Both the position numbers and the translations under genes were made by a program. DNA of 64,000 nt from Longimicrobiales bacterium (GTDB lineage Bacteria > Gemmatimonadota > Gemmatimonadetes > Longimicrobiales > Gaopeijiaceae): NCBI GenBank assembly GCA_963664435.2, contig CAXXKM010000001.1:704001-768000 (forward strand), in the 5' to 3' direction. Positions 5,902 through 30,606 of the stretch are shown piece after piece. The notes under the pieces are model-generated. The model saw only the letters and a list, made by a program, of their open reading frames with translations, ran no database searches and was not told where the DNA came from. Within the stretch, counting starts at the first letter, position 1; each line of letters begins with the position of its first letter.

Positions 5902-6714
5902 CAGCCGGCGCCCCGACCCTAATCTTGGGCCACGGCAGCCCACGCGGGAGTCCTACCGTTGGAACAGATGCTACGCGGGAGTAGTGGCTTCCGCTCAGGC
6001 GTCGGCGTCACCGCACCAGCTCAGCGGGTTGTCGGACGCCTCCATCCGATGAACGCAGCTCCGCCGATACGTGGGTGGATGACACCACATTCGACCGATT
6101 CTGGCTGACCGTCTTCGTGGAGGCTTGTCGGGTTCTCGCCCACATCCACATCACGCCCTCCGTCCACGCCGCTAAACGACGCCCGCCGCAACGCATCCTG
6201 ACGGGTCTCCCGCTCCGGGCCGTCGTCCCGTCTGGTTCCCATTCTCCGCTCCTATTCTTCCACCCTTCTCGTCTCGACTCCCTCCAAGTTGTACCCTGCG
6301 GAACCGGAACCAAATGGCAGAATGAGGCCGGGGATGTTCCGGATGAGCAGTAGCGCTCACACTCGGCTGCTTCACAGGGGCCTTCCCCAACATGGAGCGA
6401 CCAGGGATCCGTCGGTGGGCTGGTTGCGCCCTGTCCGTGCTTCCGCCCGGATGAGTCGCCTCCATCCCGCCACGATGCGGGTGCTGCCCGTGCAGCGGGC
6501 ATGCTCCTTGCAAAAGTGTGAGCGAGCCCGGCAGGCTGAAGGCGATTCCAGCCCGTCGGTCGAGCGCAGGTTCCCGAACGAACGCGTCGACCATTACCGG
6601 GTCTCAGTAGGGACAGCGACTGGACGGGTCCAGTGATTCGACATTGGCCCCAAAGACGCTCTCAGACGGGAGAGGACGCCCAAATGGGCGATGTTCTCAG
6701 CGATTCTCCGGTCC

Positions 6715-6752
6715 GTTTTGCGCACGATAACTGGATTTATCGCGCGCTACGG
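6715..6752. repeat. lox-like recombination site A (palindromic arms, asymmetric 6-bp spacer CTGGAT)
   Basis: GTTTTGCGCACGATAA-CTGGAT-TTATCGCGCGC; 32/33 identical to the reverse complement of site B. Confidence 0.85.
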
Positions 6753-6894
6753 CTATGTAATCGTTTCGTTGTCACGCGGTTACGAGCTTAAGCGACCGCG
6801 GTCTCCCGCGCAACGGTCGGAGAGAGAGGGCCGGGAGCAGCGGTCATGCCGACCGTTGGCCGTATGTTCCTGAACCCCGACGACAAGGCGATCT

Positions 6895-7878
6895 TCAGCG
6901 CTGCTGCCTCGCGGCCAATTGTGCCGCGCCGCTACGTCGCGCCAGCAATCGCTCGCCGTAGCGTTGGACCATCCGCGCACTCTTCCAACGCCCGGCCTGC
7001 AGGATCGCCGGCAACTCGATTCCGCAGGCAATCATGTCTTGAACCGGCCCCACGCGCGTGCTGTGCCCCGCCAGAGCGTCCACAGTGTCGGCGGGAATCC
7101 CGGCACGCAGGGCCATTGACTTGTAGATGCGGGGCACTTGACTCGGAGGGAGCTGCTCGCCCACAGAGCCGTCCTTGCGCACCGAACGGAACAACCGCCC
7201 ATCGGCGATTCCGCTGCGGCCAAGCCAGACCTTGACGATGCTCACCGTGTCGCGCGCGAGAAAGAGCATGGCGCCTGCCCCTTCGGGATCCGTCTTGCTC
7301 GTTCGCACGAGCAGCGTTGCGGAACCATCGGCTTCCTCCGCCAGATCCGACACGTCCAGCGACACCAGTTCGGATCGGCGCAACAGCGTGTCGTAGGCCA
7401 CGGCCAGCAGGGCGCGATTCCGCGCGTCGATCAGCCGCCGTCCCGCGGCCTTGATCAGTCGGTTCCGGAGCGGCCAAGTGAGCCCCGTCACCTGAGTTTG
7501 TCTGCGTCCCCGGTTCCGGTACATCCGCTGGAGGGCCAGCTTCACGGCCGTGCTGTCCGCCGGGTTCGGTAGGCGTAGCGTCTTGTGGAGCGTCGCGATG
7601 CTGGATACGTAGCGGCGCACGGTGGCCGGAGCCCTGCTGCTGCCCATGTCGTCGATGAAGGCGATCAAGGTGTTGGCGCTCGCGGGCGCGGCCACCATGC
7701 CGTCCTGCTGGCACCAGGCCAGGAATACCCGCAGGTCGGCCCTCAGCGCCCGCTCCGTGTTCCGGCTGAAGGCGCTGTTAACCGTCTCGAAGAAGCCCGC
7801 TAACTGCTCCGCCACGTCCGCGTCTGATTCTGCGCCGGTCAAGGAATCTATGTGTGGTTTCGTGTCTGCATCTGGCAT
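6895..7878 (-). CDS. Cre-like tyrosine recombinase (SAM-like N-domain plus catalytic domain)
   Basis: All catalytic residues present: LLRRSEL (R), SKTD (K), HSTR (HxxR), GRW (W), QRY (Y); GGAGG RBS precedes ATG 7878. Confidence 0.92.
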   Translation of the reverse strand: MPDADTKPHIDSLTGAESDADVAEQLAGFFETVNSAFSRNTERALRADLRVFLAWCQQDGMVAAPASANTLIAFIDDMGSSRAPATVRRYVSSIATLHKTLRLPNPADSTAVKLALQRMYRNRGRRQTQVTGLTWPLRNRLIKAAGRRLIDARNRALLAVAYDTLLRRSELVSLDVSDLAEEADGSATLLVRTSKTDPEGAGAMLFLARDTVSIVKVWLGRSGIADGRLFRSVRKDGSVGEQLPPSQVPRIYKSMALRAGIPADTVDALAGHSTRVGPVQDMIACGIELPAILQAGRWKSARMVQRYGERLLARRSGAAQLAARQQR

Positions 7879-7912
7879 CGAGTGGCCTCCGGTTCGGTCG
7901 CAAGGACCGCGC

Positions 7913-7950
7913 GTTTTGCGCGCGATAAATCCAGTTATCGCGCGCAAAAC
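7913..7950. repeat. lox-like recombination site B (perfect 16-bp arms, spacer ATCCAG)
   Basis: GTTTTGCGCGCGATAA-ATCCAG-TTATCGCGCGCAAAAC; spacer inverted relative to site A. Confidence 0.9.
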
Positions 7951-7979
7951 TCCCTGCGAAACAGGAGGCGAACTCGAGA

Positions 7980-10556
7980 ATGAACATGATTGGTCAAAGG
8001 ACTAAGCTGGACGGATTGGCGTGCCTCGCGCGTCCTTGGCAGGCGACACTCGCCCTGGCCCTCGCCCTGCTGGCGGGCACCGGGACTGCTGCGGCACAGG
8101 ACACCATGCCCCCGGGGCTGGAGTACGCGAGGATCGACGGGACGACGCTGACACTCCGATTCGATAAGCCGGTGGGGTTAGGGATGCCCAAGCAGGTCGT
8201 GCACGGGTTCACGGTCGCCGGGATCTCGGACAGCGCCAGCGTGCATCCGACTACGATGAAGTGGGACAGCCGGACGGCCACACTCGAATTCGGCACGCGC
8301 GCGGAACCGGGGCAGACGGTCACGGTGAGCTACGATCCGGACGAGGTCCCCAACTCGCCCCCCACTCCGGAGCACCCGAATGGGCTGCCCGCGGCCCTGG
8401 TCTACACCGACGGCACCTGGGTGCCGAAGTTCTCCGACGCGCCGGTGACCATCCTGGCTCCGAAGCCCGCGACGGACCTCACGTTTTCGAACCAGTTCGG
8501 GTTGACAGTCGATCTGTCCTGGACGCAGCCCGTCCACCCCGAGGGCGTGGTCGCCAAGGTGGTAGTTGACGTGTCGTCAGACTCGCTTTTCTACACGATT
8601 GGACGTTGGCCAATCCATGCGGACTCGACCTCGATAACAATGATGATAGAACACGGATGGGGTTACACTGATTACTTCCGCGTCCGGTACTTAACCGACA
8701 ACTATCATGCGGATTCCGAGGTCGCGACGTGGACGAGTACGCAGGAGGGTCTGAAATCCCCCACCGGCTTGACGGCGTCGAACGCGACGCAGACAACGGT
8801 CGACCTAGCATGGACGCTACCGGATCAGGCCGTGTGGGTAGCGCAGGCGGCGTCGGTGGGTGAGGTCTGGAGCGAAGTGCAACAGCAGCAGGCGGATGGG
8901 ACCTGGAGCAGGGTGGCGAAGCTTGCCGCCGACGCGGTGGCGCACACAGTGACCGGACTGAGCGCCGGGACGGCCTACAGCTTCCGTGTTTTGCTCGATT
9001 CGCGCAATAACTTCGCGGACTCGGAGCCCGTGTCCGTGACCACCTTGGACGACAGGCCACCGCTGACGGCGGCGTTCCACGATGTGCCGGCCACGCACGG
9101 CGGCAGGCGCGCCGACTTTAGCTTCGAGCTTCGTTTCAGCGAGAACTTCCCGGGGAAGCTGCCCTACAAGAAGCTCAGAGACGAGGCGCTTAGTGCGACG
9201 AACGGCAAAGTGACGCGCGCGCGCCGGGCGGCGCAGAACCAGAACCAGCGCTGGATCATCACGGTGCGGCCGCTCTCGTCCGAGGACGTGACCGTGACGC
9301 TGGCGGCGACGACCGATTGCTCGGCGGCAGCCGCGATCTGCACGCCGGACGGTCGACCGCTGTCGAACTCCCCCTCGGCGACGATCCAGGGGCCGTCGGC
9401 GCCGGAGGCGACCGGCGTGAAGGTGTCATCGCACGCCGGCGCGGACAGCACCTATGTCTTGGGCGATACGATTCGCGTGACGCTGACTTTCAGCCAGCCG
9501 GTGGAGGTGACGGGCACGCCGCAGCTGAAGATCGACATGGACCCGGCGCACTGGGGCGAGAAGTTGGCCAGCTACGAGAGCGGCGGAGGGGACGACATGA
9601 CGTTCGCCCACGTGGTGGTGGAGCCTAATCTTTCAACCCAGGGGATCGCGGTGCTCGCGAACACACTTCGGCTCAACGGCGGCACGATCAGGTCCAAGGC
9701 GACAGGTGCGGACGCCGACCTGGCGCATGCCGGGCTGGCCCACGATCCGGCCCACAAGGTGGACTGGCGGCAGTCGGCGAGCTCGGGTGACGTGGCCAAC
9801 GGCGACGTGGTGGAAGACCCGTCGGTTCTCGCGGACGAGGCGCTGGCCGTAGCGGACGGGTTGAGCCCGGACGAGGCCGCCGCGGCGCTGTTCGGTGAGG
9901 GGACGCTCAGCGAGGCCAGGCAGGCCGCGCTCGACCTTCTGGGCAACCGGAACGGCGGCTACGATCTCGGGGACCTGCTCTCCTGGATCGAGCGCTGCCG
10001 AAGAGGTGAAGCCCGGTGCGGAGGAACACCTACCGATTCCAGTCCCACTTCGGGCGCCGCCCTCATCGGGGCTGCGGCAGCCGGACGGCGGGGGAACTCC
10101 AGGCGCCGCGGGCGCTCACGCGTCCGCGGCACGGGTCGCCGGGCGGGCAATGCCGGATGGGCGCTCACCGTGCTGCTCGCAGCCGCAATGACTTGGTCGT
10201 GCACCGGTGATGCGATGGCGCCAACCGCTCCGGCCGCCACCGTACCGGATCCGGGTCTCCTGACGGTCGAGTGGAGTGGGCCGGCAGCGAGAGCCGATAT
10301 CGGCGTCCTGCTGGAGTTGGAGGGTCCCACAATCGACGCCGTGCGAGCTCCCGGTCTCGAGCTGTACGAATCCGGAGCAGAGGAGCGCCATCAGATCGTC
10401 GTGGCGGGCGTCCTCCGGCCGGGTCCCCTCATGCAGTTCCACGTACCGGACCGCAACCAGTTCTCTCTGTACCGGGTCCGCGTCCTACAGGTCACGGGTG
10501 AGGGCTACGGGCTCCGGGACCCAACGGAGTACCGGGCCGTGGTCGTCACGAACTGA
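7980..10556 (+). CDS. Secreted/surface multidomain protein (SwmB-like repeat, fibronectin type III and Ig-like modules)
   Basis: Signal peptide ending AAAQ; PPGLEYARIDGTTLTLRFD; FN3-like PTGLTASNATQTTVDLAW...VTGLSAGTAYSFRV; AGGAGG RBS. Confidence 0.75.
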   Translation: MNMIGQRTKLDGLACLARPWQATLALALALLAGTGTAAAQDTMPPGLEYARIDGTTLTLRFDKPVGLGMPKQVVHGFTVAGISDSASVHPTTMKWDSRTATLEFGTRAEPGQTVTVSYDPDEVPNSPPTPEHPNGLPAALVYTDGTWVPKFSDAPVTILAPKPATDLTFSNQFGLTVDLSWTQPVHPEGVVAKVVVDVSSDSLFYTIGRWPIHADSTSITMMIEHGWGYTDYFRVRYLTDNYHADSEVATWTSTQEGLKSPTGLTASNATQTTVDLAWTLPDQAVWVAQAASVGEVWSEVQQQQADGTWSRVAKLAADAVAHTVTGLSAGTAYSFRVLLDSRNNFADSEPVSVTTLDDRPPLTAAFHDVPATHGGRRADFSFELRFSENFPGKLPYKKLRDEALSATNGKVTRARRAAQNQNQRWIITVRPLSSEDVTVTLAATTDCSAAAAICTPDGRPLSNSPSATIQGPSAPEATGVKVSSHAGADSTYVLGDTIRVTLTFSQPVEVTGTPQLKIDMDPAHWGEKLASYESGGGDDMTFAHVVVEPNLSTQGIAVLANTLRLNGGTIRSKATGADADLAHAGLAHDPAHKVDWRQSASSGDVANGDVVEDPSVLADEALAVADGLSPDEAAAALFGEGTLSEARQAALDLLGNRNGGYDLGDLLSWIERCRRGEARCGGTPTDSSPTSGAALIGAAAAGRRGNSRRRGRSRVRGTGRRAGNAGWALTVLLAAAMTWSCTGDAMAPTAPAATVPDPGLLTVEWSGPAARADIGVLLELEGPTIDAVRAPGLELYESGAEERHQIVVAGVLRPGPLMQFHVPDRNQFSLYRVRVLQVTGEGYGLRDPTEYRAVVVTN

Positions 10557-10576
10557 CAACCCCCACCAAGATGGGT

Positions 10577-11225: not shown

Positions 11226-11777
11226 ATGCAGACCCTGGAGGAGCAATTCAACAGACGGCTGAACGCGTTCCTGGCCAGCACGGGCATGTGCCCGACGACG
11301 CTCGGCATGATGGCGGTGGGCGACCCGAGCCTGTTGCGCCAGATCGAGCGGGGACGCTCGCCGTCCCTCAGGACGGCGGACCGGATTCTGGCCTTCATGG
11401 CCGCCTACGAGGCGGACTCGGGCGGGGCGAGAGATCCGCCCGCCCGGCCTGCCGCGCCGAGGCCGGCGAGACGGTGGAGGAAGACGAACCGGAGCGGAGC
11501 GATGAGGAAAGACCGGAGGACTGCGAGAACGAGGCCGACGATCCGTTTCCTGCGGATCTCGGAAGTCGAGGCGCTGACCGGCCTGTCGCGGACCACGATC
11601 TACGACTGGTCGGCGGACGGGCGCTTTCCCCGGGCGGTCCGGCTGAGCGGGCGCGCGGTGCGCTGGATCGAGTCGGAGGTCCTGGAATGGATGGATGAGC
11701 GGATCGAGCACGACCGGGTCGGGGACGACGCCCCGGCGCCGACACCACAACTGACTCCCGAGGAGGAGAGCGAATGA
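11226..11777 (+). CDS. Cro-like HTH fused to an AlpA-family regulator
   Basis: N-terminal GDPSLLRQIERGRSPSLRTADRI; C-terminal FLRISEVEALTGLSRTTIY...FPRAVRLSGRAVRWIESEV. Confidence 0.8.
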   Translation: MQTLEEQFNRRLNAFLASTGMCPTTLGMMAVGDPSLLRQIERGRSPSLRTADRILAFMAAYEADSGGARDPPARPAAPRPARRWRKTNRSGAMRKDRRTARTRPTIRFLRISEVEALTGLSRTTIYDWSADGRFPRAVRLSGRAVRWIESEVLEWMDERIEHDRVGDDAPAPTPQLTPEEESE

Positions 11778-12061
11778 GAACGTTGTCGAGAACGCTGAAG
11801 GTGGCCGCCTGGGCCGCGCTGCTGGCGCTGACGCCGGGTGTGCTCTGGGCGCAGGGGACGAGCCCATGGGTCGAGGCGGTGGACGAGCTACAGACGCAGT
11901 TCACGGGTCCGATCGCGCGCGGGCTGTCGCTGATCGCGATCGTGGTGGGCGGGCTGATGTTCGCGTTCGGCGAAGGCGGCAGCAAGCGCACGCTGGCCGG
12001 GATCATCTTCGGGATCGGGATGGCCGTCGGTGCCGTGAACTTCCTGGCCTGGCTGTTCTGA
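11774..12061 (+). CDS. virB2: TrbC/VirB2 pilin
   Basis: Signal peptide, SPWVEA...FTGPIARGLSLIAIVVGGLMFAFGEGG, two hydrophobic segments. Confidence 0.88.
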   Translation: MRTLSRTLKVAAWAALLALTPGVLWAQGTSPWVEAVDELQTQFTGPIARGLSLIAIVVGGLMFAFGEGGSKRTLAGIIFGIGMAVGAVNFLAWLF

Positions 12062-12366
12062 TGCGGGGACTGAGGCGCTGGGCGGGCTACGCCGCGCTCA
12101 ACCGGCCGCTCACCGTTCTGGGCGTCGAGCGGCGGCTGTTCCTGCTGGGCGCGACGCTCGCGCTCTCGGTGTGGAACGCGACGGCCTCGCTGGTGGCGGG
12201 CGGCGTGATCTTCGCCGGCTGCTACGGTGCGGGCTGGCTCGCTGGCCGGAAGGACCCGGCCATGCTCGCGGTGCTCCGTGCGGCGTCGCGCCACCCGGCG
12301 CGGTTCGATCCGGGCAAGTGGGCGGCTGAGCCCTGGCACCTGAAGGTCCGGGGAACCGGCGAGTGA
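12061..12366 (+). CDS. virB3: TrbD/VirB3 protein
   Basis: MRGLRR...ALNRPLTVLGVER...RKDP; lies between virB2 and virB4. Confidence 0.8.
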   Translation: MRGLRRWAGYAALNRPLTVLGVERRLFLLGATLALSVWNATASLVAGGVIFAGCYGAGWLAGRKDPAMLAVLRAASRHPARFDPGKWAAEPWHLKVRGTGE

Positions 12367-14810
12367 GGGTCGCCGAGGAGCTTCGGGCGCACGAGGCGGC
12401 GGGCTCGCTGGCCGAGGAGCTGCCCTATTGGGGCTGGCTCGACGATGGCCGCACCTGCCTGGCGCGCTCGGGCGAGTTGATCGCGGCCGGCCGGCTGTTG
12501 CCCGCCGCCGTGGACGGGCGCACGCCGGAGCAGGTCGACCGGGTGCTGGGGCTCTGGCAGCGGCTTCTGTCGGGACTCGACCCGAGCGCGCGCCTCTACT
12601 TCTATCTGCTCCGGCGCCCGGCGGCGATGGCCGATCCGGCGGCTGCGAACGTTTCCGAGATCGCGTCCGTCTCGGGGCGTAAACGCCGTTCGTTCCTGGC
12701 CCGGCGGGTGCAGCGGCTGGACGCCTACGTCGTCTGGTCGCTCGGGTCCGCTCTCCGTCCGGTGGCCAGGCGCACGCGGTCCGGACCGCTGGCCCGGCTC
12801 GCCCGGCTGCGCAAGCGCCGGAAGAAAGGCGCGCCGACGTACCTCGCCTCCGAGGTCGAGGCGGCGGCGGACCGGTTCCGCGCGATGGTCGAGGCGGGCC
12901 GCTCGCTGGTGGCCGAGCACACGCCAGTCGAGATGCTGGAGGCCGTGGAAGCGTCCCGGCTGCTGTCGGAACTGATCAACCGCCCGGGCATGGCGTGGGA
13001 CGGCGCGACGGGCAGCGGCATGAACTGGCGGCTCGCACTGTCGGAGCTGGAGGCCGAGCGCAGTCACCTGAAGCTGGACGGCGAGCCGTTGATCCTCTAC
13101 TCGCTGTTGTCACCGCCGGGCCAGGCCCACGCCAACCTGCTCAAGGATCTCTACTGCCTCGATGCCACGTTGACCGTCTCGCTCGAATGGCGGCCGTGGA
13201 CGGTCGAGGCGGCCAGGCGGCGGATCCGGGGCGCGCAGCGGCACTACTTCTCGCGCCGCTACTCGATGATGGCGCACGTGCAGGAGACCGAGGGCACCGC
13301 GTCGGCGATGGTCGACTCGGCCGCCGCGGTCGAGTCGGACCGGCTGGGCGCCGCGCTCGTCGAACTCGAAGCCGACGGCGTGGCCTACGGCGAGGCGGCG
13401 CTCACCGTCGCGCTCCACGGCGAGCTTGAGGATATCGAGCGGCTGGACGGCGACGTGCGCCGCCTGTTCGCCGCGCACGACGCGAAGGCAGTCCGCGAGG
13501 GCTACGGCCAGCTGCCCGTCTGGTTCTCGCGGCTGCCGGCCCAGCCGCGCAAGCGGCAGGTCAGGACGGCGTTCGTCTCGGCCGGGCTCACCGCTTGCCT
13601 CGCGCCCGTGTTCGGGCCGCCGAAGGGTTCGGCCCGGTGCAAGCACCTGGACCGCGAGTCGCTCGCGGTGCTGGAGACGCCTTGGCGCACGGCGTACCAC
13701 TACGACCTGTTCCGTGGCGACGTGGGCCACACGCTGATCCTGGGCGCGACGGGCTCGGGCAAGAGCTTCGCGCTCAACTTCCTGCTGGTCGAGGCGCTCA
13801 AGTACGGTCCGCGCGTGCTGATCCTGGACCTGGGCGGCTCCTACCGCTGGCTGACCCGGTTCCTCGGGGGTTCCTACCTCGAGCTCACGCCCGGCAGCGA
13901 CGCCGATTCCGGGCTGAGCCTTCAGCCGTTCGCGCTGCCCGCGGGCACGCGCACGTTCCAGTTCCTGACCGGCTGGGTGCTCCGGCTGCTGAGGCTCGGG
14001 GGCTACGAGCCGACGGGCGCGGACACGAGCGAGATCCGCTCTCGGATCGAGGACCTGTACGCGCTTGGAGCCGAGCGCCGCACGCTGAGCGTGCTGACCG
14101 GCTCGCTTCCCGCCGCCATGTGGCCGGCGCTCAGCCGCTGGACCGGCGACGGCGTCTGGGGCCGGTTCTTCGACAACGCGCCGGTCGGCGGGGCCGACCT
14201 CGAGTTCCGCGACTGGCAGGTGATCGACCTGGCGGGCGCGGCGGAGCACGCGGACCTGTGCGAGGCGGCGCTGGCCTACTTGCTCGAACGGATGCGGCTG
14301 GAGATTGAGGACCCCCAGGAAGCCGCGCGGCTCAAGCTGATGGTCGTGGACGAGGCGTGGCGCTACCTGGCCGACCCGGCCGTGCTCGCCTATCTGGCCG
14401 AGGCCGCGAAGACGTGGCGCAAGAAGAACGCCGCGCTCGTGCTCGCCACCCAGTCGGCCGTGGACATGACCGGGACGTCCGGCGCATCGGCGCTGCTCGA
14501 GTCGATCCCGACGAAGCTGTTCCTGGCGAACCCCGAGTTGCCGGACGAAGTCGGCGTCGTGTTCCGGCTGAACGAGTCGGAGGTCGGGCGGATCCGGGAG
14601 CTGACGCCCAAGCGCGAACTGTATCTCCGGCGCCCGGACGAGGCGGCCGTGCTCCGCCTCGAAGTCGATCCGGAGAGCTACTGGCTCTACACGTCCTCGC
14701 CGCTGGACGCCGAGCGGCGGGCCGAGGCCGTCGAGAGACACGGACTCGCCAAGGCGCTCGAAGTCCTGGCGAACCCCAATCCCCAACCCACTACCCCAAG
14801 GAGGACATGA
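12363..14810 (+). CDS. virB4: VirB4/TrbE ATPase
   Basis: GHTLILGATGSGKS Walker A; MVVDEAW Walker B; WRKKNAALVLATQS. Confidence 0.92.
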   Translation: MRVAEELRAHEAAGSLAEELPYWGWLDDGRTCLARSGELIAAGRLLPAAVDGRTPEQVDRVLGLWQRLLSGLDPSARLYFYLLRRPAAMADPAAANVSEIASVSGRKRRSFLARRVQRLDAYVVWSLGSALRPVARRTRSGPLARLARLRKRRKKGAPTYLASEVEAAADRFRAMVEAGRSLVAEHTPVEMLEAVEASRLLSELINRPGMAWDGATGSGMNWRLALSELEAERSHLKLDGEPLILYSLLSPPGQAHANLLKDLYCLDATLTVSLEWRPWTVEAARRRIRGAQRHYFSRRYSMMAHVQETEGTASAMVDSAAAVESDRLGAALVELEADGVAYGEAALTVALHGELEDIERLDGDVRRLFAAHDAKAVREGYGQLPVWFSRLPAQPRKRQVRTAFVSAGLTACLAPVFGPPKGSARCKHLDRESLAVLETPWRTAYHYDLFRGDVGHTLILGATGSGKSFALNFLLVEALKYGPRVLILDLGGSYRWLTRFLGGSYLELTPGSDADSGLSLQPFALPAGTRTFQFLTGWVLRLLRLGGYEPTGADTSEIRSRIEDLYALGAERRTLSVLTGSLPAAMWPALSRWTGDGVWGRFFDNAPVGGADLEFRDWQVIDLAGAAEHADLCEAALAYLLERMRLEIEDPQEAARLKLMVVDEAWRYLADPAVLAYLAEAAKTWRKKNAALVLATQSAVDMTGTSGASALLESIPTKLFLANPELPDEVGVVFRLNESEVGRIRELTPKRELYLRRPDEAAVLRLEVDPESYWLYTSSPLDAERRAEAVERHGLAKALEVLANPNPQPTTPRRT

Positions 14811-14814
14811 CGCC

Positions 14815-15321
14815 ATGAGGCTACCGATCGTCACCGCCGTACTGACGCTTCTGCTGGCCGCGTACCCCGTCGGCGCCCAGGAACACAAGGCCGCTGAGAA
14901 GCGGGATGAGGACGCGACGTTCCTTCGCGTGCCCGCCGCCGAGGCCGGCCAGGACCACATTTACTCTGTTCGCGCGCGCGTGAGGCACACGACCGTGATC
15001 GTGCTCCCGGCATCCGAGAGGATCCTCGACTTCGTTGCCGGCGACTCGGAGTACTGGCACCTGACGGGTGCGGCCAACGTCGCTTACCTCAAGCCCCTGG
15101 CCGAGGACGCGGCCACCAACATCGCGCTCGTCTGCGAGTCGGGCCGCATCTACTCGTTTCTGGTCTCGGAGCACGGCGACGAACCCCCGCACCTGGTCGT
15201 CCGGGTCGAAGACGGACTGGATGCCGCGGGCATGTCCGGCACCGGCCTTCCCGCGTTCGTAGCGCGGAGCGAGGTCGCCGCCTACCGGGAGATGGCCGCC
15301 GAGGCGGCCGAGTCGGCGACG
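14815..15321 (+). pseudogene. virB9: VirB9/TrbG N-terminal part (gene interrupted by insertion)
   Basis: Signal peptide; HTTVIVLPASERI...YLKP...TNIALVCESGRIYSF; frame runs into the foreign insert at 15322. Confidence 0.8.
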
Positions 15322-15469
15322 GTAGCCTACTCTGATCCAGTAACATCCAAGGGCGTTCCGAGTAGTACAGCATATCGTTGTTATACAACGCTTTATCCAG
15401 ACTCCGACTGCTTCTTGTGCTCTCGTCACGTTCCTTGACGTCCAATCCCATCCCACATATTATGAGGTA

Positions 15470-16693
15470 ATGGATGACGTAACCCGCACCCCCGCCCCGA
15501 CCCGGAAAACCAAGCCGAAGGGCCGCCACCCCCACAAGCGGCTCTCGGCTGCCTTCGTGCGCGCCGCACCTCCCGGGAGGCACTGCGACGGTAATGGACT
15601 CTACCTCTACGTTCAGCCGAGCGGTGCGCGCAGTTGGGTGCAGCGGCTCGTCATTCGTGGCCGCCGCCGCGACTTCGGACTCGGCAGCGTTGCCTTGGTC
15701 TCTCTCGCCGAAGCACGCGAGAAGGCGCGGGCCAACCGCAAGCTCGCCCGCGAGGGCGGGGATCCGCTCGCCGAACGGCGTCGTGCGCGGGGCGTGCCCA
15801 GCTTCGCGGAGGCGACGAGGATCGTCCTGAAGCAGAAGCAGCCCGGGTGGCGCAGCAAGGCGCACGGGAAGTACTGGCTGTCGACTCTGGAACGCTACGC
15901 CTTCCCCCGGATCGGCAAGATCGCGGTCTCGGAGGTGGCCACGGCCGACGTTCTGGAGATCCTGACCCCGATCTGGCACACGAAGAAGTCCACGGCCCAG
16001 TCGGTGCATCAGCGCATGGGCTCGGTGTTGGAGTGGGCGGTGGCGATGGAGTACCGGACCGACAACCCCTGCGACCGGGTCCGGCCGGTGCTCGGGCCAC
16101 AGAATCGGGTCGTGAAGCACATGAAGGCGCTCCCTCATAGGGAGGTTGGAGCGGCGATCAGGAAAGCGAGGAGGACGGACCAGATGCCGGTGGCGCGCCT
16201 GGCGTTCGAGTTTCTGGTGCTGACGGCGGCGAGGTGGGGCGAAGTGCGTTGGGCCGAATGGTCGGAGATCGACTTGGGCGAAGCGGTGTGGACGGTGCCC
16301 GCCACGCGCATGAAGGCGAAGCGGGAGCACCGGGTGCCGCTATGCGGGCGGGCGCGGGAGATCCTTGACGAGGCGCGAAGGCTGGGCGGAGAGGACTGCC
16401 GGTTGGTGTTCACGCGGTTGAACGGACGGCCGCTTTTCGAGAAGCGGCTGCGCCAGCTGCTCCAGAAGCACCGGATCGCCGCGGTGCCGCACGGGTTCCG
16501 GTCGTCGTTCCGGGACTGGGCCGCCGAGGAGACGGACCATCCCCGGGAGGTGGTCGAGGCGGCGCTGGCGCACGTGGTCCAGAACAAGGTGGAAGCCGCG
16601 TACCGGCGTACCGACCTGTTCGAGCGGAGGCGGCGGCTCATGGATGACTGGGCAGCGTATCTCGCGGCCGGGAGCGCGGGCACCGAGACCTGA
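15470..16693 (+). CDS. P4-like tyrosine integrase with arm-DNA-binding domain
   Basis: DGNGLYLYV...SW...GLGS...VSLAEAREKA; LTAARWGEV, MKAKREH, PHGFRSSF, LAH, AYRRTDL. Confidence 0.93.
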   Translation: MDDVTRTPAPTRKTKPKGRHPHKRLSAAFVRAAPPGRHCDGNGLYLYVQPSGARSWVQRLVIRGRRRDFGLGSVALVSLAEAREKARANRKLAREGGDPLAERRRARGVPSFAEATRIVLKQKQPGWRSKAHGKYWLSTLERYAFPRIGKIAVSEVATADVLEILTPIWHTKKSTAQSVHQRMGSVLEWAVAMEYRTDNPCDRVRPVLGPQNRVVKHMKALPHREVGAAIRKARRTDQMPVARLAFEFLVLTAARWGEVRWAEWSEIDLGEAVWTVPATRMKAKREHRVPLCGRAREILDEARRLGGEDCRLVFTRLNGRPLFEKRLRQLLQKHRIAAVPHGFRSSFRDWAAEETDHPREVVEAALAHVVQNKVEAAYRRTDLFERRRRLMDDWAAYLAAGSAGTET

Positions 16694-16970
16694 CGCCTCC
16701 CGCGACGCGTTCGGAAGCCGTTTCCGGTCGGTCCGAAGGCTATTCGGGGAATCTACGGGCCACAGAATGGCCCAGAATCGACGATCCCGGGTCTCCGAGG
16801 GGTAGGGGTAGGTGGCAATCGGGCCGCGCGGCAGAGTGCGGCGGGGTCACGGGGAGTGATGGGTCGGCCGGTTGCCCTCGCGTCCTTGAGGCCGGCGACC
16901 TTGCCCGCGACGCCTCGATGGGCGTTGTTCCGGGCGGTGCCCGGAGAGGCGTTTTCGGCGGCTCCGCCGG

Positions 16971-17025
16971 GCTGGCTTGACCCACTGTTCTATGGTCAAG
17001 CCAGCATACCCCGTGTATAACACGG
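16971..17025. promoter_or_regulatory. oriT-like structure: perfect 12-bp inverted repeat followed by a second palindrome
   Basis: GCTGGCTTGACC-N11-GGTCAAGCCAGC, then CCGTGT-ATA-ACACGG. Confidence 0.5.
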
Positions 17026-17191
17026 AGGCTGACGAGGGGTGGCTCCGCTCCCCCTTCGAACCCCCTGAGTCTACTCCGCTCCCTTGAAGGTCACGGCTGA
17101 GGCGTCGCCCCTCATCCCGGCCATCTCCGGGTCGAAAAAGACTATCGCCGCGCGGGCGTCGCACGTGATCTCCTGATCGTCGACCCGGTCG

Positions 17192-18043
17192 TCAAATCTC
17201 GGCGAAGAACTCCGGTTGAGGTCTTGTCCTCTTCACCAACTCCGTGCTTACCCCGAGTTCCAGCTTCCTCAGGAGCCCACAAAGAGCCAATCCGTCGATG
17301 AGGTCGATAGCCGGCGCTCCATCCCGTACGGCTTCCCGCACTGCACCGCTCGTGAACCGGCCCGTCGTCATGAACAGGCCCTTGTCCGCGCGACCGACCA
17401 TTGCCCCTCTGAAGTCTCGGATCTCCCTCGCTTGCACGGAACCAGCGTACCTCTTGCACTGAAATCGCACGTGAAACGAGATGAGGTTGACCCGCAACAC
17501 ACCGGCCCCGTCGATACCGCCGTCGCCAGATCGTCCCGTTACCTCAACCTTCGTGAAGCCCGATTCCCTCAGAATCCGCTGACACAGGCGCTCAAAAGCG
17601 GCAGGCGTCAATTCACGCAAGATAGCCAACAGATCTTCCTCCCAGTCGCTTTCAGTCGAGGGCTCGGGGTCCTTCGACCTGTCGGCAGTTGCCGGCTTGA
17701 CGCGTTCGCGCCAGCGACGCTTGCGCTCCCGACGGACGAGATCGCGCAACTCCTCGTCCGAAGGCATCGCTCGGCCCTTCGGAGTGATCCTCCAAACGCC
17801 GCGGGCCGTGTTGTCGACGGCACCGACCCACTTGAGGTTGGTCCGTGCCCACGCGAGGCGGTAGCCAACTTCTGTCTGCGGGCCTTCGCCGTGAAGCTCG
17901 TCGGCAACCACATCCGGCAAAGCCAACAGCCGCGTGACCTGTTCCGAGAGTTCTTGGATCGACGCCGAACCGCCGTTGTTCTTCAGAACCTCCAGCGTCG
18001 GCCAGAGCAGGTCTTTGTAGGTCGGCATCTCTGGTGCCGTCAC
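17192..18043 (-). CDS. mrr: Mrr-family type IV restriction endonuclease
   Basis: Mrr N-terminal PTYKDLLWPTLEVL...RLAWARTNLK; catalytic DGGIDG...QCKRY. Confidence 0.9.
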   Translation of the reverse strand: MTAPEMPTYKDLLWPTLEVLKNNGGSASIQELSEQVTRLLALPDVVADELHGEGPQTEVGYRLAWARTNLKWVGAVDNTARGVWRITPKGRAMPSDEELRDLVRRERKRRWRERVKPATADRSKDPEPSTESDWEEDLLAILRELTPAAFERLCQRILRESGFTKVEVTGRSGDGGIDGAGVLRVNLISFHVRFQCKRYAGSVQAREIRDFRGAMVGRADKGLFMTTGRFTSGAVREAVRDGAPAIDLIDGLALCGLLRKLELGVSTELVKRTRPQPEFFAEI

Positions 18044-18520
18044 CGGTCAGCCTCCAGGCGTAAACTCGAACGTGGCCAACGATCCATGTCGGGGAATGTA
18101 GCCTCGCACGGCTTCGCGGTGTAGATCTTCGTAGCGGCTGAGAAGCCCGTCCCGCCGACTCGGCAAGCCAGGGGGAGCAGAGATGTCGAATCCTGACGCC
18201 GAACCGTTTTTCCGTCGTCTTTGACACCATCCAGGAGACCGGCGGAACACTCTCCCGAGCGCTCCAGCACTGCGCCCGCCGGTCCCCCGATCTCCGGGGC
18301 GGGCTCGCCCGCCCCTCCCATCGGGGTTGGATTCCGAGACTGTCGTGTCACAGCTTCCCGCACGTGGCTCGAAGGCCGCGATCCGTCGGGTCGTCCACAA
18401 CCGTCCCGTACGGGCGATTGGAATCCCGTCCGGGAAGAGGTATGAAATGAGGTAACCTCTTGGTCGCGGGTCATGTAAGTATTTGCATAGCAGTCACTTA
18501 TGATCTTTTCTGACACACTG

Positions 18521-18859
18521 GCGGCGCGCAGAGCGCAGGCGGCGGCGGACGCGGAGATCGAGGCGTTCCGCGCCTCCTACCCCACCCGGCTTGCGTTCGA
18601 GTACCGGCTGGACCGGGATGCCTCGAAGCGTCCATTCCTCGTCGAGGCGATGTGGCATGACGGGCAGTTCACCTATCTGCGATCGCGCGCCCAGGAAGCG
18701 CCGGCGCTCTATGAACTGCGGGACGGCGAGCCGAGCCTGGTCGCGTTCGATCTGACAGAGGACGGCCTCTACGTCGCGCGCCGCGTGCTGGGCGACGGCT
18801 GGCTCCAGATCGGAGACGAGCGGCTGCGCTGGCGGTTCGAGCCCGGGGACGCGCGATGA
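18521..18859 (+). pseudogene. virB9: VirB9/TrbG C-terminal part
   Basis: YPTRLAFEY...MWHDGQFTYLR...EAPALY...LVAF; abuts the virB10 start. Confidence 0.8.
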
Positions 18860-20112
18860 GCCGCTGGAAGCAGTGGATCAAGGAGCCGAAGGGCGCTCTG
18901 CCGGGCGGCATCATCACGAAGGCGGGGATCGCGCTGATCGGCGTGCTCATCGCCGGCATGCTGTTCTCGTCGTCGCTCACGGGTCCCGAGGAGGACCCGA
19001 TGGCCCCCGCCCCTTTCGAGGCGCAGGCCGTGGACGACCGCGCGGGGCGCTCGTTCGAGGGACGGCTGCGCGCCGAGGCGGAGCGCCAGGTCCTGCGCGC
19101 CGCGGCCGACGATGCCCGCGCCGACAGCGAACGCCGCCAGGCCGAGGCCGAGACGGCCGGGGCGGGTGGCAGGAGCGGAAGCGGCGAGCGCGGAGCGGGT
19201 GGAGGAGCAGAGGGGACGGCCGGCATGGTCCAGGCCGAGTACGAGCTTCGCGAGGCGCTACGGCTCGAAGAGATCGAGCGGCGGACGCGCTCGCTCCGCT
19301 CGCTGCCCGTCGCACAGACGTACCGGGACCCGAACGAAGCGCGGGACCCAACCCGCCCGTCGGCGGCCGAGCCCGAGCCGCCCGAGGCGGCGCTCGATGC
19401 AATGCTCGCGTCCTTCGGACAGTCGGTCGCCGCCTTGGAGGCCGAGATGCAGGCCGGGATGGCGGCCGAAGGGCTTTCGCTTGGCTCGCCGGAAGCTGGC
19501 CCGCAGGGCACTCGCGTCCCCGGCACGGCGGACCCGAGCCTCAGCGTCCGGCCGCTCGACCCGCCGGGCTGGGAGCGGATCCGGGAGGGCTCGTTCCTCG
19601 AAGCCGTGCTGGTCACCCAACTGTCGGGCGAGTTCCCCGGACCCGTGCTCGCGATGGTGTCGGTGCCGCTGTATTCGGCGGACCGGCAGCGGGTCCTCGT
19701 TCCACGCGGCGCGCGCGTCGTCGGCACCGCCCGGGCCGTGCAGGACCGCGACCAGAGCCGCCTGGCGGTCGCGTTCCACCGGCTGCTGCTGCCGGACGGA
19801 AGCTGGATCGACCTTGAGTTCGCCGGGCTGAACCAGGCGGGCGAGGGCGCGCTCAAGGACCAGGTGAGCCGCCACTACTTCTCGACGTTCGCCGCCGCGG
19901 GTGCGGTCGGCGCGCTGAGCGGACTCACGCTGGCCGGAGCCTCGCCCTACGGCCTCCGGGCCGGCGTCGGCCAGGGGCTCGGAGGCAGCGCCACCTCCGT
20001 CCTCGACCGGTTCCTGAACCGGATGCCCGAGATCACGATCCGCGCCGGCCACCGGCTCCGCATCTGGTTTACCGCCGATGCCCTCATTCCCACCCCCGAC
20101 CCACACCAATGA
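18856..20112 (+). CDS. virB10: TrbI/VirB10
   Basis: N-terminal TM; GSFLEAVLVTQLSGEFPGPV...VPRGARVVG...PEITIRAG. Confidence 0.9.
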   Translation: MSRWKQWIKEPKGALPGGIITKAGIALIGVLIAGMLFSSSLTGPEEDPMAPAPFEAQAVDDRAGRSFEGRLRAEAERQVLRAAADDARADSERRQAEAETAGAGGRSGSGERGAGGGAEGTAGMVQAEYELREALRLEEIERRTRSLRSLPVAQTYRDPNEARDPTRPSAAEPEPPEAALDAMLASFGQSVAALEAEMQAGMAAEGLSLGSPEAGPQGTRVPGTADPSLSVRPLDPPGWERIREGSFLEAVLVTQLSGEFPGPVLAMVSVPLYSADRQRVLVPRGARVVGTARAVQDRDQSRLAVAFHRLLLPDGSWIDLEFAGLNQAGEGALKDQVSRHYFSTFAAAGAVGALSGLTLAGASPYGLRAGVGQGLGGSATSVLDRFLNRMPEITIRAGHRLRIWFTADALIPTPDPHQ

Positions 20113-20129
20113 CACGAAAGGAATCTCCC

Positions 20130-21035
20130 ATGCTCCACCGCATCCTCGCCCCCGCCGTTTTCCTTGCGCTGTTCACCCTTGCGAGCCCCAGGCCCGCGAG
20201 CGCCCAGTTCGACTTCGGCAGCTGGGTCCAGCGCGCCACGATCATCGCGAATCAGATCAGGCAGATCACGAACCAGGTCAGCCAGATCCGGTCGATGGCC
20301 CGCCAGCTCACCGAGCTCGAGGACCAGCTCGATCACATGGAGCGCGCCGCGCGCGGCGAGATCGACGCGCTGCTCGCGCCGTTCTCCCGGCTCGCCGCCG
20401 AGCCCGTGGGACTGGTGCGCGACGGACTCTCCTGGAGCGCGGACTTCCAGGGCCCGGCACGACAGACGGTCGATGCCGTTCGGGGCATGGGAAGCGGCGG
20501 CCGCTCGTTCACCGGACTCTGGCAAGGCGCGAGAAGCGCGGCCGACCGGGTGTCGGAAGCCGACGTCGTCGCGCTGTTCCGCGACTTGCCGCCCGAGGCC
20601 GCCACGCGCGCGGCCGCGGACTACCGCCGCGCCCGCGAAGCCGCCGACCGGCAGCGCGTGCTCGACTACGCGACGCTCGACGCGGCGACCGAACTCGCCG
20701 AGACCATCGAGAGCGCGCAGGGCTCGTTCGCCGGCCTGACCGCGAACGGCAACCTGTCCAACACCGCTCTGCAGCAGGCCGGGGTCGCGGCCGCGCTGAG
20801 CCAGGGCCAGATCAACGCGGGCGTCGCACAGGTGCTCGCCCAGCAGGCCGCGCGGGAGGCGAGCCGGGCGCAGTTGGCCGAACTCGCGCGCCTCGAAGGG
20901 CTCGCCGCGTGGAGTGAAGGCCGGACGCGCGCGAACGCGATGGCGGGGACGCTTCGCGACGCGGCGTCCCGGAACCGCACCGCGCTCCGCGACGGGCTGC
21001 TTCTCAAGATCCCGTCGTTCTACGCGGGCAACTAG
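20130..21035 (+). CDS. TrbJ/VirB5-like secreted protein
   Basis: Signal peptide ASAQ, Q-rich coiled coil (NQIRQITNQVSQ), position before virB6. Confidence 0.6.
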   Translation: MLHRILAPAVFLALFTLASPRPASAQFDFGSWVQRATIIANQIRQITNQVSQIRSMARQLTELEDQLDHMERAARGEIDALLAPFSRLAAEPVGLVRDGLSWSADFQGPARQTVDAVRGMGSGGRSFTGLWQGARSAADRVSEADVVALFRDLPPEAATRAAADYRRAREAADRQRVLDYATLDAATELAETIESAQGSFAGLTANGNLSNTALQQAGVAAALSQGQINAGVAQVLAQQAAREASRAQLAELARLEGLAAWSEGRTRANAMAGTLRDAASRNRTALRDGLLLKIPSFYAGN

Positions 21036-22168
21036 TGTTGTGCCGCTAAAGCGGTGTTGGCACGGTTGACCTTAGCCAGGATGTCGCGAACGGTGGCGGT
21101 CCAGACGAAGGGTTTCGGGGCGCGGTTCCTGTGGTCGATGTAGGACGTGATCGCGTGGACGAGCTGGCCGACGCTGTGGACGGCGAGGCGTTTGAGCTGG
21201 CGCTGCGTGAGTTCGGAGAAGAAGCGCTCGACGAGATTGAGCCACGAGGACGAGGTGGGCACGAAGTGGAAGTGGACTCGGGGGTGCCGGTCCAGCCAGT
21301 CCTTCACTCGGGCATGCTTGTGGGTGGCGTAGTTGTCGAGGATGAAGTGCAGGTCGAGTTCCGGGTCGCATTGTTTTTCGACGGTGCGCAGGAAGCGGAG
21401 GAACTCCTGGTGCCGGTGACGGGGCAGACACTGGTGGATGACCTCTCCGGTGGCGACGTCCAGCGCCGCGAACAGCGTCGTGGTCCCGTGGCGCTTGTAG
21501 TCGTGCGTCATGGTGCCCGCCCGTCCCTTCTTGAGCGGCAACCCCGGCTGGGTCCGGTCCAGGGCCTGGATCTGGCTCTTCTCGTCGAAGGAGAAGACGA
21601 TCGCCCGCTCCGGCGGCGCCACGTAGAGCCCCACCACGTCGCGGAGCTTCTCGACGAAGCGGGGATCGGTGGAGAGCTTGAAGTAGCGCACCCTGTGGGG
21701 CTTCAGTCCGTGGGCGTTCCAGATCCGCCCCACCTGGCTGTGATGCAGCCCCATGCCCTCGGCCATCAGGCGGGTGCTCCAGTGCGTCCCCCGCGGCGGT
21801 TTCTCCTCGAGCGTGCGGCGCACGACCTCGGCCTCGACTTCGGGCGTGATCGTACTTCGCGGCCGACCGGGGCGGGACCGATCCTCAAGTCCCGCGAGCC
21901 CCTCTTCGTCGTACCGGTCCAGCCATCTTTGCACGGTCGGCAGCGAGACGCCGATCTCGCGGGCCAGCGTCCGGCCCGGCAAACCTCCGGCCGAACCCAG
22001 TATGATCCGGGCGCGCTCCACGCGCCGCTGCGGGGTCGTGCGGGCTCGAACCCATCCCTCGAGCTCCTTGCGGTCCCCGGGTCGCAATCGAATCCTTCGC
22101 AGAGCAGGCATGCATGGAAGATAGCGGCTTCTCCATGCGTTAACCCTGCCACTTATGCGACACTACAC
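21035..22168 (-). mobile_element. IS630-family element, copy 1 (transposase 21032-22111)
   Basis: DEKSQIQAL, HDYKRHGTTTLFAAL, DNYATHK, SWLNLVERFF; TA duplicated within CTAG; imperfect IRs GTGTAGTGTCGC/GTGTTGTGCCGC. Confidence 0.95.
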
Positions 22169-22183
22169 TAGGGGGCGTTCGCG

Positions 22184-23161
22184 ATGCAGCAGTCGATCGA
22201 CCCGAACGTCCCCACGCAGATCCCCGACGACCAGCTCCAGGACTTCAAGAGCTTCCTGGACGTGGTGCTCGACACCGTGGTCGGCGGCGCGGCGCCCGAC
22301 GTGCACACGCTCGGGCTCCAGCTGTGGGGCGGGCTCGCCGCCGTCATGGTCGCCTGGACGGGCCTGAAGATCGCGTTCAGCGGCACCTTCCAGCCTTGGG
22401 ACATCATCAAGCTCGTGATCGGGATCGCCATCCCCCGCACGATGCTCCACTACTACATCGTGCCCATCCCGGGCGTCGGGCTCACGTTCCCGGCCACCAT
22501 CGCGGCTGGCGGCACCTGGCTCCAGAACCTGTTCCTCTCCGACGTGGTGTCGGCAGGCTACACGGAGATGGCGGCGCTCGTGCAGGCGTACTCCGCGCAC
22601 CTGAGCGCCGCCTGGTCGGGCGGGAACCTGCTCTCGATCGTCACCTCGGGCGTGACCGTGATCTTCTCCTCGCTCGTCTCGGTCGTGATGGGCGCCTCGC
22701 TCGTCGCCTGCCTGCTCGCGCTGTTCTGCATCACCTACGCGCAGGTCATCTGGGCGCAGGTCGCCATCGCGATCGCGATCCTGCTCGGTCCGGTGTTCAT
22801 CGCGTTCCTGCTCTTCGAGCCGCTCTCGTTCCTGTTCTGGGGATGGTTCAGGACGCTGATGGTCTACACGCTCTACGGCGTCGTGGCCGGTGCCGTGCTC
22901 CGCGTCTTCATGGGCGTCGGGCTCGGCTACATCACGACCTACGCCGACGCCCTCATGGGCACCGGCACCGCCGACGCGGGCGAGCTCTGGCTCTGGGCCG
23001 TCGTCCTCATGCCGCTCGTCGTCTCGGGCCTCTGGGCCGGGCTCAAGGTCGGCGAACTCGCCTCGATGCTGGTCTCCGGCTCCGGCTCCGCCGGGTCCGG
23101 GTTCGTCGCGCTCGTCATGCAGGGCGCCAGCAAGGCCGCCGTCCCCGCGAAGCCCGTCTAA
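22184..23161 (+). CDS. virB6: TrbL/VirB6 polytopic membrane protein
   Basis: Multiple TM segments; LLGPVFIAFLLFEPLSFLFWGW. Confidence 0.85.
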   Translation: MQQSIDPNVPTQIPDDQLQDFKSFLDVVLDTVVGGAAPDVHTLGLQLWGGLAAVMVAWTGLKIAFSGTFQPWDIIKLVIGIAIPRTMLHYYIVPIPGVGLTFPATIAAGGTWLQNLFLSDVVSAGYTEMAALVQAYSAHLSAAWSGGNLLSIVTSGVTVIFSSLVSVVMGASLVACLLALFCITYAQVIWAQVAIAIAILLGPVFIAFLLFEPLSFLFWGWFRTLMVYTLYGVVAGAVLRVFMGVGLGYITTYADALMGTGTADAGELWLWAVVLMPLVVSGLWAGLKVGELASMLVSGSGSAGSGFVALVMQGASKAAVPAKPV

Positions 23162-23181
23162 GACATGAGGAGATCCTGGTA

Positions 23182-23850
23182 ATGAAACGAGACAGGAACG
23201 CCGGCCGCGAGTACGCCGAGATATGGGGCGAGGCCGTGCAGGCGAACCGGAAGCTCCGCACCATCCTGATCTTCCTCTCCGCGAGCTGCGTCCTCGGCGT
23301 CTTCGTCCTGCTGCGGATCGCGGGTGCCGAGCCGCCCAAGCCCATCGTGGTGCGGGTCGACGAGGTCGGGCGCGCCGAGGCGCTCGCCTACGAGGCCGCC
23401 ACCGCCCAGGCCGATCCGCTCGATCCCACGACCAAGTACTTCCTGAACCGGTTCGTCAACGACTTCCACTCGCGCCGCCGCGTGACCGTCCAGGAGTACT
23501 GGACCCGGAGCCTCCGGTTCCTGTCGACCGAACTCGCGAACGCCGCGTTCGCCAGCGACGGCGACGAGGTCGCGAGCGTGGCGGCCGGCACGGCCGAGAC
23601 CGAACGCCAGGTCGAGCGGGTCGTGCTCCGCATCCATCCCTCGCCCGAGCCGCCGCACGGGGCCACCGCCGACTTCGAGGTCGTGCATCTCGCGGCCGGA
23701 CAGGAGGTCCTGCGCGAGCGCTGGTCCGTCGCGCTCCGGTTCGAGTTCCTCGACTCGATCCCGCCCGAGCTGGTCGTCCACAACCCCATGGGCATCCTCA
23801 TCACCTACCTCCAGGCCGACCGGGCGCTGGTGACGGGGGAGGAGCGATGA
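23182..23850 (+). CDS. virB8: TrbF/VirB8
   Basis: KPIVVRVDEVG...YFLNRFV...HNPMGILIT. Confidence 0.85.
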   Translation: MKRDRNAGREYAEIWGEAVQANRKLRTILIFLSASCVLGVFVLLRIAGAEPPKPIVVRVDEVGRAEALAYEAATAQADPLDPTTKYFLNRFVNDFHSRRRVTVQEYWTRSLRFLSTELANAAFASDGDEVASVAAGTAETERQVERVVLRIHPSPEPPHGATADFEVVHLAAGQEVLRERWSVALRFEFLDSIPPELVVHNPMGILITYLQADRALVTGEER

Positions 23851-24779: not shown

Positions 24780-25077
24780 GCGGCCAGCGTGCTGTGCCGC
24801 ACCGCGGCGTGAAAACGACGCGAGGGGTCGTTTCACGATTCGGCCCTCCGGCGATTCACATGCGGCCTTCCGTCCATCCGCTTGCGCGGTGGCGTCTTGC
24901 GGCCTCGCGGCCCGCCCGCCCGTTGCCGGACGGGCCGCATCGGCCGTGGCGGGAGCGACCCCCCTCGCCGAAGGCTCGGTGCGGCGTAGGGCCGAGTGTG
25001 TTTTCACACGACTCGCCCCTCCGCCCTCCAGGGGTCGCTCCCGCAGCATCGATCCCTCCGGGAAGGGTGTCGGACCG

Positions 25078-28124: not shown

Positions 28125-28327
28125 CCTGGAACGGCGAAACCATCCCCATCGAGACGTTCGAGGACTTCGACCTCGAACTCGCCCGCGACGGCGGCGAGAC
28201 GCTCGAAGTCCGGGCCTACCTGGCCGAGGAGTACGGCCTCTTCCCCGAGGATGTCGGGACCGAGGACGAGATCGCGGCCGCCTGGGACGACCCGCACGGC
28301 GCCGCCGGGGAGGAGGACGAGCGATGA
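28121..28327 (+). CDS. Small acidic hypothetical protein
   Basis: AGGAGG RBS; overlaps both neighbouring ORFs. Confidence 0.55.
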   Translation: MTWNGETIPIETFEDFDLELARDGGETLEVRAYLAEEYGLFPEDVGTEDEIAAAWDDPHGAAGEEDER

Positions 28328-29361: not shown

Positions 29362-29368
29362 AGGACCG

Positions 29369-30271: not shown

Positions 30272-30291
30272 CCGTACGGGAGGAACCCGCC

Positions 30292-30606
30292 ATGCAACCT
30301 TGGAAGATCAGCGCGGGACTGAGCGCCGCGCTCGTGGGATCCGTCCTGCTCCTCGGTGGATCCCGCCTCGAATACCTCGCGCCCCACTGGTCGCTCATCT
30401 TCGCCCGGCATGGCGTCGGCGTCGGCCTGCACGCGGCGTTCGCCGTCTTCACCCTCGCCGCCGCCATCTACGGCGTCGCCCGAGCCACCGGGCTCGCCGA
30501 TCTCGGCAGCCGCGTCGATCTCGCCGAGCGGTCCGTCCGGCGCGGTGAAGGGGATCATGACCTCGCCGATGCGCTCCGCAGGGACGCCGAAGGAGACTGG
30601 GAGTGA
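30292..30606 (+). CDS. Small membrane protein
   Basis: GGAGG RBS; two hydrophobic helices. Confidence 0.55.
   Translation: MQPWKISAGLSAALVGSVLLLGGSRLEYLAPHWSLIFARHGVGVGLHAAFAVFTLAAAIYGVARATGLADLGSRVDLAERSVRRGEGDHDLADALRRDAEGDWE

Follow-up and report, generated by a model that had tools for sequence, protein, structure and literature searches.

What does a Cre-type tyrosine recombinase do when its gene is enclosed by two inverted lox-like sites, with the gene of a surface protein just beyond one of them? This arrangement occupies positions 6,715 to 10,556 of a 64,000-nucleotide stretch of a Longimicrobiales genome (assembly GCA_963664435.2, contig CAXXKM010000001.1, positions 704,001 to 768,000), referred to here as the window. 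We consider it probable that the locus is a self-contained invertible promoter cassette that controls the surface gene. The window copy and its relatives combine this layout with an intact enzyme, site cores that co-vary between loci, both orientations within the family, and a promoter-like motif at one end of the segment.

Site A, on the stop-codon side of the recombinase gene, spans 6715..6752, a position kept in homologues, with a 34-bp core region at 6717-6750 and the overlap CTGGAT at 6731-6736. Site B, on the start side, spans 7913..7950 and has perfect 16-bp arms around the overlap ATCCAG (7929-7934), inverted with respect to site A. The two 6-bp cores are exact reverse complements, and 6715-6747 and 7918-7950 form the longest inverted repeat within window positions 1-20000 (33 nt, 97%). 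A previous sequence-only reading of this DNA described two 38-bp palindromic inverted sites; its coordinates and inverted cores stand, while the full palindrome holds for site B only. The arms of site A are imperfect, with one mismatch in the left arm and a right arm that is palindromic over its inner 11 bp only. Under the lox convention each site reads as 13+8+13 = 34 bp, and arm conservation across the family drops beyond ~13-14 bp; the inner 11 bp of all four arms in the window copy equal the family consensus with one mismatch. The 4.5-Mb genome contains 141 palindromes whose 11-bp arms are separated by a 6-bp gap; the GATAA core is found in six of them, and all six flank the three copies of the recombinase gene, so the pairing of the sites is not due to chance.

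The 1,160 bp between the sites contain one intact recombinase gene as their sole gene, as the earlier estimate of about 1.2 kb holding a single Cre-like recombinase had it. This gene (6895..7878, minus strand, 327 amino acids) is preceded by a GGAGG ribosome-binding site on the same strand (7890-7886), and its assignment draws on domain and PDB matches, catalytic residues, and the ratio of nonsynonymous to synonymous substitution (dN/dS). The protein contains the Phage_integrase (tyrosine) domain, is ~30% identical to Cre over most of its length, and matches Cre in PDB with an E-value of 1.5e-29 over residues 21-313 (XerD, 2e-5). The catalytic residues R168, K195, H272, R275, W298, and Y307 align with those of Cre and are invariant in all 15 aligned homologues, and dN/dS is 0.10-0.23 against six homologues and 0.14-0.15 against the other two copies in the genome. 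The XerC/D-dif and integron alternatives were rejected, as all NCBIfam Xer models score far under their cut-offs and Cre outranks XerD in PDB. Judged by its sequence and its site, the enzyme is of the Cre type and not a one-site resolution module, and it would catalyze recombination on sites A and B.

The presumed target of the switch is a secreted or surface protein of 858 amino acids (7980..10556, plus strand) with an SWM_repeat domain (residues 40-119), an fn3 domain (260-352), and a signal-peptide-like N-terminus, the signal peptide being called by eye. Its ATG at 7980 lies 29 bp beyond site B, as previously noted, and its AGGAGG ribosome-binding site (7963..7968, plus strand) is likewise outside the invertible segment. 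The C-terminal part (window 9900-10556) includes an internal hydrophobic stretch ending in cysteine that resembles a lipoprotein signal, and the 85-residue end domain is common to two other genes of the genome. On the opposite side, beyond site A, is a non-coding outer flank (6466..6714) that is shared with the other two genomic copies, similarity beginning at 6466.

To place the cassette in a family we gathered 33 loci from species genomes, 10 from related genomes (a match in 8 of 61, the genome of the window included), 79 from metagenomes (from the best 80 of 281 matches), and five further regions; individual loci and genomes carry L and G numbers below. No relative was found among four pattern matches in viral contigs. 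A site-matrix scan detected two sites in 67 loci, a start-side site only in 20, a downstream site only in three, and none in 42, many of these contigs being short. The cores are exact reverse complements in 66 of the 67 two-site loci, the remaining one (L015) having a single mismatch. After near-copies were merged this holds for 56 of 57 distinct loci, which display 18 core types, and after dereplication at 90% for 34 of 35 lineages; permutations gave 3.3 on average and 11 at most. Tyrosine recombinases require matching overlap regions, an established rule (available text of PMC10250229), so co-varying cores are what selection for recombination within each site pair would be expected to leave behind. 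Titled hosts belong to three phyla, Gemmatimonadota, Acidobacteriota, and Pseudomonadota. The genome of the window (4.5 Mb in three contigs) carries the whole module three times, at 95% protein identity and in a single orientation throughout; one core is common to two of the copies, and in the third both cores carry the same change. We considered whether core differences insulate copies within one genome and discarded the idea: five copies in G061 share one core, and pairs in G005, G011, and G066 differ.

Several family members depart from the compact layout. In L030 and L052 insertions have enlarged the invertible segment to 2.8 and 3.3 kb, and the cores still match. L136:6255-13608 and L137:7311-12536 each have a flipped cassette and, 3-5 kb away, a second divergent recombinase without detectable sites, with a STAND-type NTPase gene between the two recombinase genes. 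L066 also has two recombinases, one of them without sites.

The sequence-only reading had proposed a search of related genomes for the order site, recombinase, site, surface gene. In 42 of the 57 distinct two-site loci an adhesin-like gene leads away from the start-side site (37 recognized by Pfam and five by DNA similarity), adhesin-like being defined by the Pfam set fn3, cadherin-like, Calx-beta, SWM, Ig, LRR, PPC, and TbpB. Three loci (L012, L023, and L083) have the adhesin-like gene on the stop side, the predicted ON layout; three more (L004, L008, and L010) have stop-type flanks on both sides; and nine are unclassed. The segment of L083 is 88-90.5% identical over ~1,128 bp to those of L050, L051, L053, and L029, and its start-side flank resembles their stop-side flank and vice versa, while like-for-like comparisons gave no match. 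Its outer arms are exchanged as well, which places the crossover at the core, and the swapped side carries both a gene with Calx-beta and SWM domains and AlpA. With only 20 identical bases in common between the two sites of L083, an assembly error is unlikely, though possible. L012 and L023 have SWM and fn3 genes on the stop side, and L056 has the flipped layout with a broken recombinase gene lacking its 5' part. In addition, the junction that a flip would create in the window copy is 87.5% identical to L004 over 88 nt spanning the site. For the family, these comparisons indicate that both orientations occur in nature.

If the segment inverts, the position of its promoter decides which state is ON. 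Promoter scores were calculated with E. coli weights and cover sigma70-type motifs only. In many loci an outward-facing sigma70-like motif lies between the stop codon of the recombinase and the stop-side site; examples are TTGACG-17-TACAAT in L002 and TTGACA-17-TACAGT in L062, the latter with its -10 box inside the core. Of 35 lineages, 33 have a higher outward score at the stop end than at the start end (medians 9.9 vs 3.5), and 32 and 33 score higher there than in the two inward-reading controls; shuffled sequences are beaten at p<=0.05 in 17. By analogy with the family, the candidate outward promoter region of the window copy would be at 6755..6813 on the minus strand, facing site A. Its best match, TTGCGC-17-TAAGCT (6813 to 6785), is weak, and the position at which the third genomic copy has TTGACG-17-TCAACT reads GTAACC-17-TTACAT (6783 to 6755). 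Scores in the third copy, L001, L057, and L058 are higher, at 8.7-10.1. Where the earlier reading expected the surface-gene promoter, in or across the invertible segment, the family has an inner promoter signal, with a weak match in the window copy. Since this signal is found near site A, the end remote from the surface gene, the assembled state probably directs the promoter away from that gene and is OFF; across the family the inner promoter points away from the surface gene in 42 of the 57 distinct loci and toward it in three. A weaker signal concerns the promoter of the recombinase itself over its own site: of 35 lineages, 23 score higher in the inner than in the outer start-side arm and seven score lower, and the signal is poor in the window copy. 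A promoter overlapping its own site may allow the recombinase to repress itself.

We propose that a tetramer of the Cre-type recombinase would bind and synapse both 34-bp sites and exchange strands across the 6-bp overlap. With the overlaps inverted, the result would be a flip of the 1.2-kb segment. The inner sigma70-type promoter, between the recombinase stop codon and site A, is predicted to face outward. In the assembled state it would point toward a non-coding or regulatory flank, leaving the surface gene OFF. After a flip it would point toward the site-B flank, which carries the ribosome-binding site and ATG of the surface gene, both of which stay outside, and the gene would be ON. For the window copy we infer both this ON/OFF assignment and the switching itself from sequence. 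The earlier proposal of a tyrosine-recombinase switch for a surface protein is supported by the co-varying inverted cores, the conserved outward promoter, and the flipped copies in related lineages.

A number of results weigh against this interpretation. The ON layout is confined to the three loci named above, with nine unclassed, and the best of the three, L083, is a single metagenome contig. In the lineage of the window all nine loci (six distinct) have one orientation, none being flipped. In Logan contigs from four of 23 listed sequencing runs none of the seven joints listed switches strand, which is no evidence either way as such contigs drop rare variants. As for the promoter, 18 of the 35 lineages fail to beat their shuffles, the lineages are related so that p-values from paired tests overstate the difference, and the window copy scores a weak 6.6 (vs 1.5 at its start end). 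A strict scan of 5900-11300 for sigma70 promoters and terminators returned no promoters and two terminators, the chance level. The predominance of the OFF layout may reflect the cost of adhesins or a directional bias like that of FimE, which is described in the accessible part of PMC6083910.

Three other explanations need to be set beside switching. The sites might serve mainly for recombination between copies, such that integrative conjugative element (ICE) copies with the same core swap surface genes and rearrange the chromosome, with switching secondary. Two of the three genomic copies do share a core, non-homologous surface genes lie directly at the start-side site in different loci, and the three loci with stop-type flanks on both sides look like products of such exchange; the two flanks of L010 are 96% identical to each other, and the one on its start side is 99% identical over 2.5 kb to the stop-side flank of L011, a locus on the same contig, unless this is an assembly error. 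We nevertheless regard this explanation as improbable. Among the three genomic copies, no exchange located precisely at the sites is seen, as informative positions change partner ~100 bp outside site A; exchange between copies does not need a one-sided promoter; and hybrids with like flanks on both sides require a prior flip, which adds to inversion more than it replaces it. A different possibility accepts inversion and takes the assembled state as ON or neutral, the inner promoter serving a stop-side sensor kinase or LuxR-type regulator and the surface gene having another promoter. This would suit the predominance of the assembled layout (42 vs 3), and the inner promoter does face a hybrid histidine kinase gene in L029, L048, and L073 (by Pfam), with similar open reading frames (ORFs) in L049-L051 and L053; a surface-gene promoter of another type would also escape scores limited to sigma70-type motifs. 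However, no promoter-like signal reads toward the surface gene from the start end, only the 29 bp between site B and the ATG are left for one, the stop-side flank in the window has no long outward gene, and the 357 bp enclosed by the site pair of L085, which include a promoter-like motif, lie upstream of an SWM/fn3 gene. We judge this possibility to be unlikely.

Finally, the window copy could be dormant or locked, its promoter decayed or its weak site-A arm blocking recombination, with the sites acting as operators only. An operator role would not preserve the complementarity of the two cores, and the intact catalytic residues, the dN/dS of 0.14-0.15 against the other two copies, and the near-consensus inner 11 bp of the four arms all argue against decay, even though the arms of site A are imperfect, the promoter match is weak, the whole lineage has one orientation, and a DDE_3 transposase element interrupts the surface gene in the second genomic copy. 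Dormancy therefore seems very unlikely to us, and the invertible promoter cassette remains the preferred reading.

How does such a cassette relate to known recombination systems? With Cre/loxP it shares the six catalytic residues and a 13+8+13 palindromic site, though 22-23 of the 34 positions of site B depart from loxP. The P1 (Cre/loxP) and D6 (Dre/rox) records show one site upstream of the recombinase gene, whereas in the window a pair of inverted sites encloses the gene, accompanied by a candidate promoter and a surface gene. Cre resolves genome dimers, according to the available portion of PMC8138268; dimer resolution implies a single site per replicon, in contrast to the two inverted sites per copy and three copies per genome found here. 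One-site Cre-like recombinases from alphaproteobacterial plasmids and soil or aquatic metagenomes are 35-52% identical to the window protein and have the same GATAA-N6-TTATC core just upstream of the gene (16 metagenome loci and L143). They differ in having no second site where downstream DNA is available, and the annotated plasmid loci have no adhesin neighbor.

The accessible parts of PMC10250229 and its supplement place the sites among published Cre-type targets, which share a CGATAA-N6-(C/T)TATCG core. The G-A-T-A motif reported there beside the spacer of active sites is present in the window sites, and its Table S2 contains predicted sites with nearly the same arms. YR9 and YR11 are active in E. 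coli and their sites lox9 and lox11 share the same core, although the primer table gives one sequence for both lox9 and lox14, leaving the label uncertain. The single site of the plasmid locus L143 is lox16 of that study; in a count made by eye, 21 of its 28 arm bases agree with those of site B. The shared core supports the site assignment and weakens the earlier suggestion of a new orthogonal recombinase/site pair, which is doubtful given the resemblance to lox9, lox11, and lox16.

In function the cassette would work like the hin H segment and fimS/ipuS while being, by this comparison, a member of neither. In Salmonella the hin gene lies wholly inside the ~1-kb H segment. As proposed for the window, that invertible segment (fljBA phase variation) lies between two sites and carries the promoter of a surface-antigen gene; Hin, in the available text of PMC9368917, is a serine recombinase that needs Fis and HU, with its enhancer located on the hin gene. 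The window instead has a Cre-type tyrosine recombinase, full lox-type sites in place of hix-type sites and a Fis enhancer, a mobile element, and a cross-phylum distribution. In E. coli fimS and ipuS a tyrosine recombinase (FimB/FimE, IpuA/IpuB) inverts a sigma70 adhesin promoter, that of the autotransporter UpaE in the case of ipuS, which also governs a LuxR-type regulator (PMC6083910, accessible part). Those elements have inverted repeats of 7-16 bp, segments of a few hundred bp (260 bp in ipuS), and recombinases essentially outside, in contrast to the 34-bp palindromes and 1.2-kb segment with the gene inside found here. L085 is an exception: both of its inverted sites lie 130-490 bp downstream of the recombinase, and the enclosed motif is directed away from the SWM/fn3 gene, a fimS-like layout within the same family.

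In a quick IQ-TREE tree of 68 proteins including Cre and Dre, one branch (SH-aLRT 98) sets apart the 42 two-site rows and seven rows without a detected site pair. Outside this clade are 15 rows, consisting of 10 one-site metagenome loci and five plasmid loci, in one of which the strict scan finds a site. This topology is consistent with a single origin of the two-site clade from a one-site module.

Each of the three modules lies at one end of a Trb-type conjugative element, and we propose that the cassette is cargo of this carrier. DNA common to the copies extends from window position 6466 to ~32200 and encodes AlpA, a Trb-type secretion system, a VirD4-like protein, and an integrase. The ICE-like backbone (11226..32161, plus strand) comprises AlpA, TrbC, VirB4/TrbE, CagX/TrbG, TrbI, TrbJ-like, TrbL, TrbF-like, VirD4-like, TrbB, and a tyrosine integrase; by domain hits, several of them below the NCBIfam cut-off, it has the type IV secretion system, coupling protein, and integrase of an ICE. 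No relaxase was hit in the ORFs scanned, no att direct repeat was found between 32100-33200 and the left flank, and there is no transfer RNA (tRNA) gene in the window. A fourth related element of the genome is without the cassette. AlpA, with or without TrbC/VirB4, also lies past the surface gene in L001-L003, L050, L051, L053, L054, and L057-L061 (flanks of 4-8 kb). The closest titled relative, L001 (96%), is a Gemmatimonadetes metagenome-assembled genome, and one sequencing run containing the stretch is labelled sponge metagenome; from their taxon names we take the other hosts to be sponge symbionts.

Other mobile and defense genes surround or interrupt the carrier. An insert with an integrase and an Mrr restriction gene (window ~15318-18520) splits CagX/TrbG and is absent from the other two copies. 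The DDE_3 transposase element is identical at window 21032-22171 and 37702-38841 and has at least nine copies in the genome, and the integrase family of window 30998-32161 has more than 20 genomic copies at 74-78% DNA identity. The element is bordered by defense-type genes: HEPN and GmrSD to its left (1004-5901), and ThiF, patatin, and a presumably CBASS-like E2/E1/JAB fusion to its right (33149-49219). Elsewhere in the genome 17 tRNA genes are arrayed in less than 3 kb (G000:C2:689401-692178).

Cre-type recombinases are known as dimer resolvases and as tools. In the literature searched, which included few subscription papers, we came across neither a self-inverting switch based on a Cre-type enzyme nor invertons from sponge symbionts. 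As a tentative and rather doubtful scenario, a plasmid Cre/lox-type resolution module might have gained a second inverted site once and become a portable phase-variation cassette, which conjugative elements spread among co-habiting sponge bacteria of several phyla, toggling many unrelated adhesin-like genes; same-core copies would recombine, so that cassettes would double as hubs reshuffling surface-gene repertoires and chromosome segments. For genome engineering, the family is a source of many natural recombinase/site pairs with 18 overlap variants, depending on how far they cross-react. If confirmed, the cassette would represent a mobile phase-variation system that spans phyla and serves the adhesin-like proteins of uncultured symbionts and, because orientation can be read directly from long reads, would provide a testable link between these proteins and bet-hedging in host colonization.

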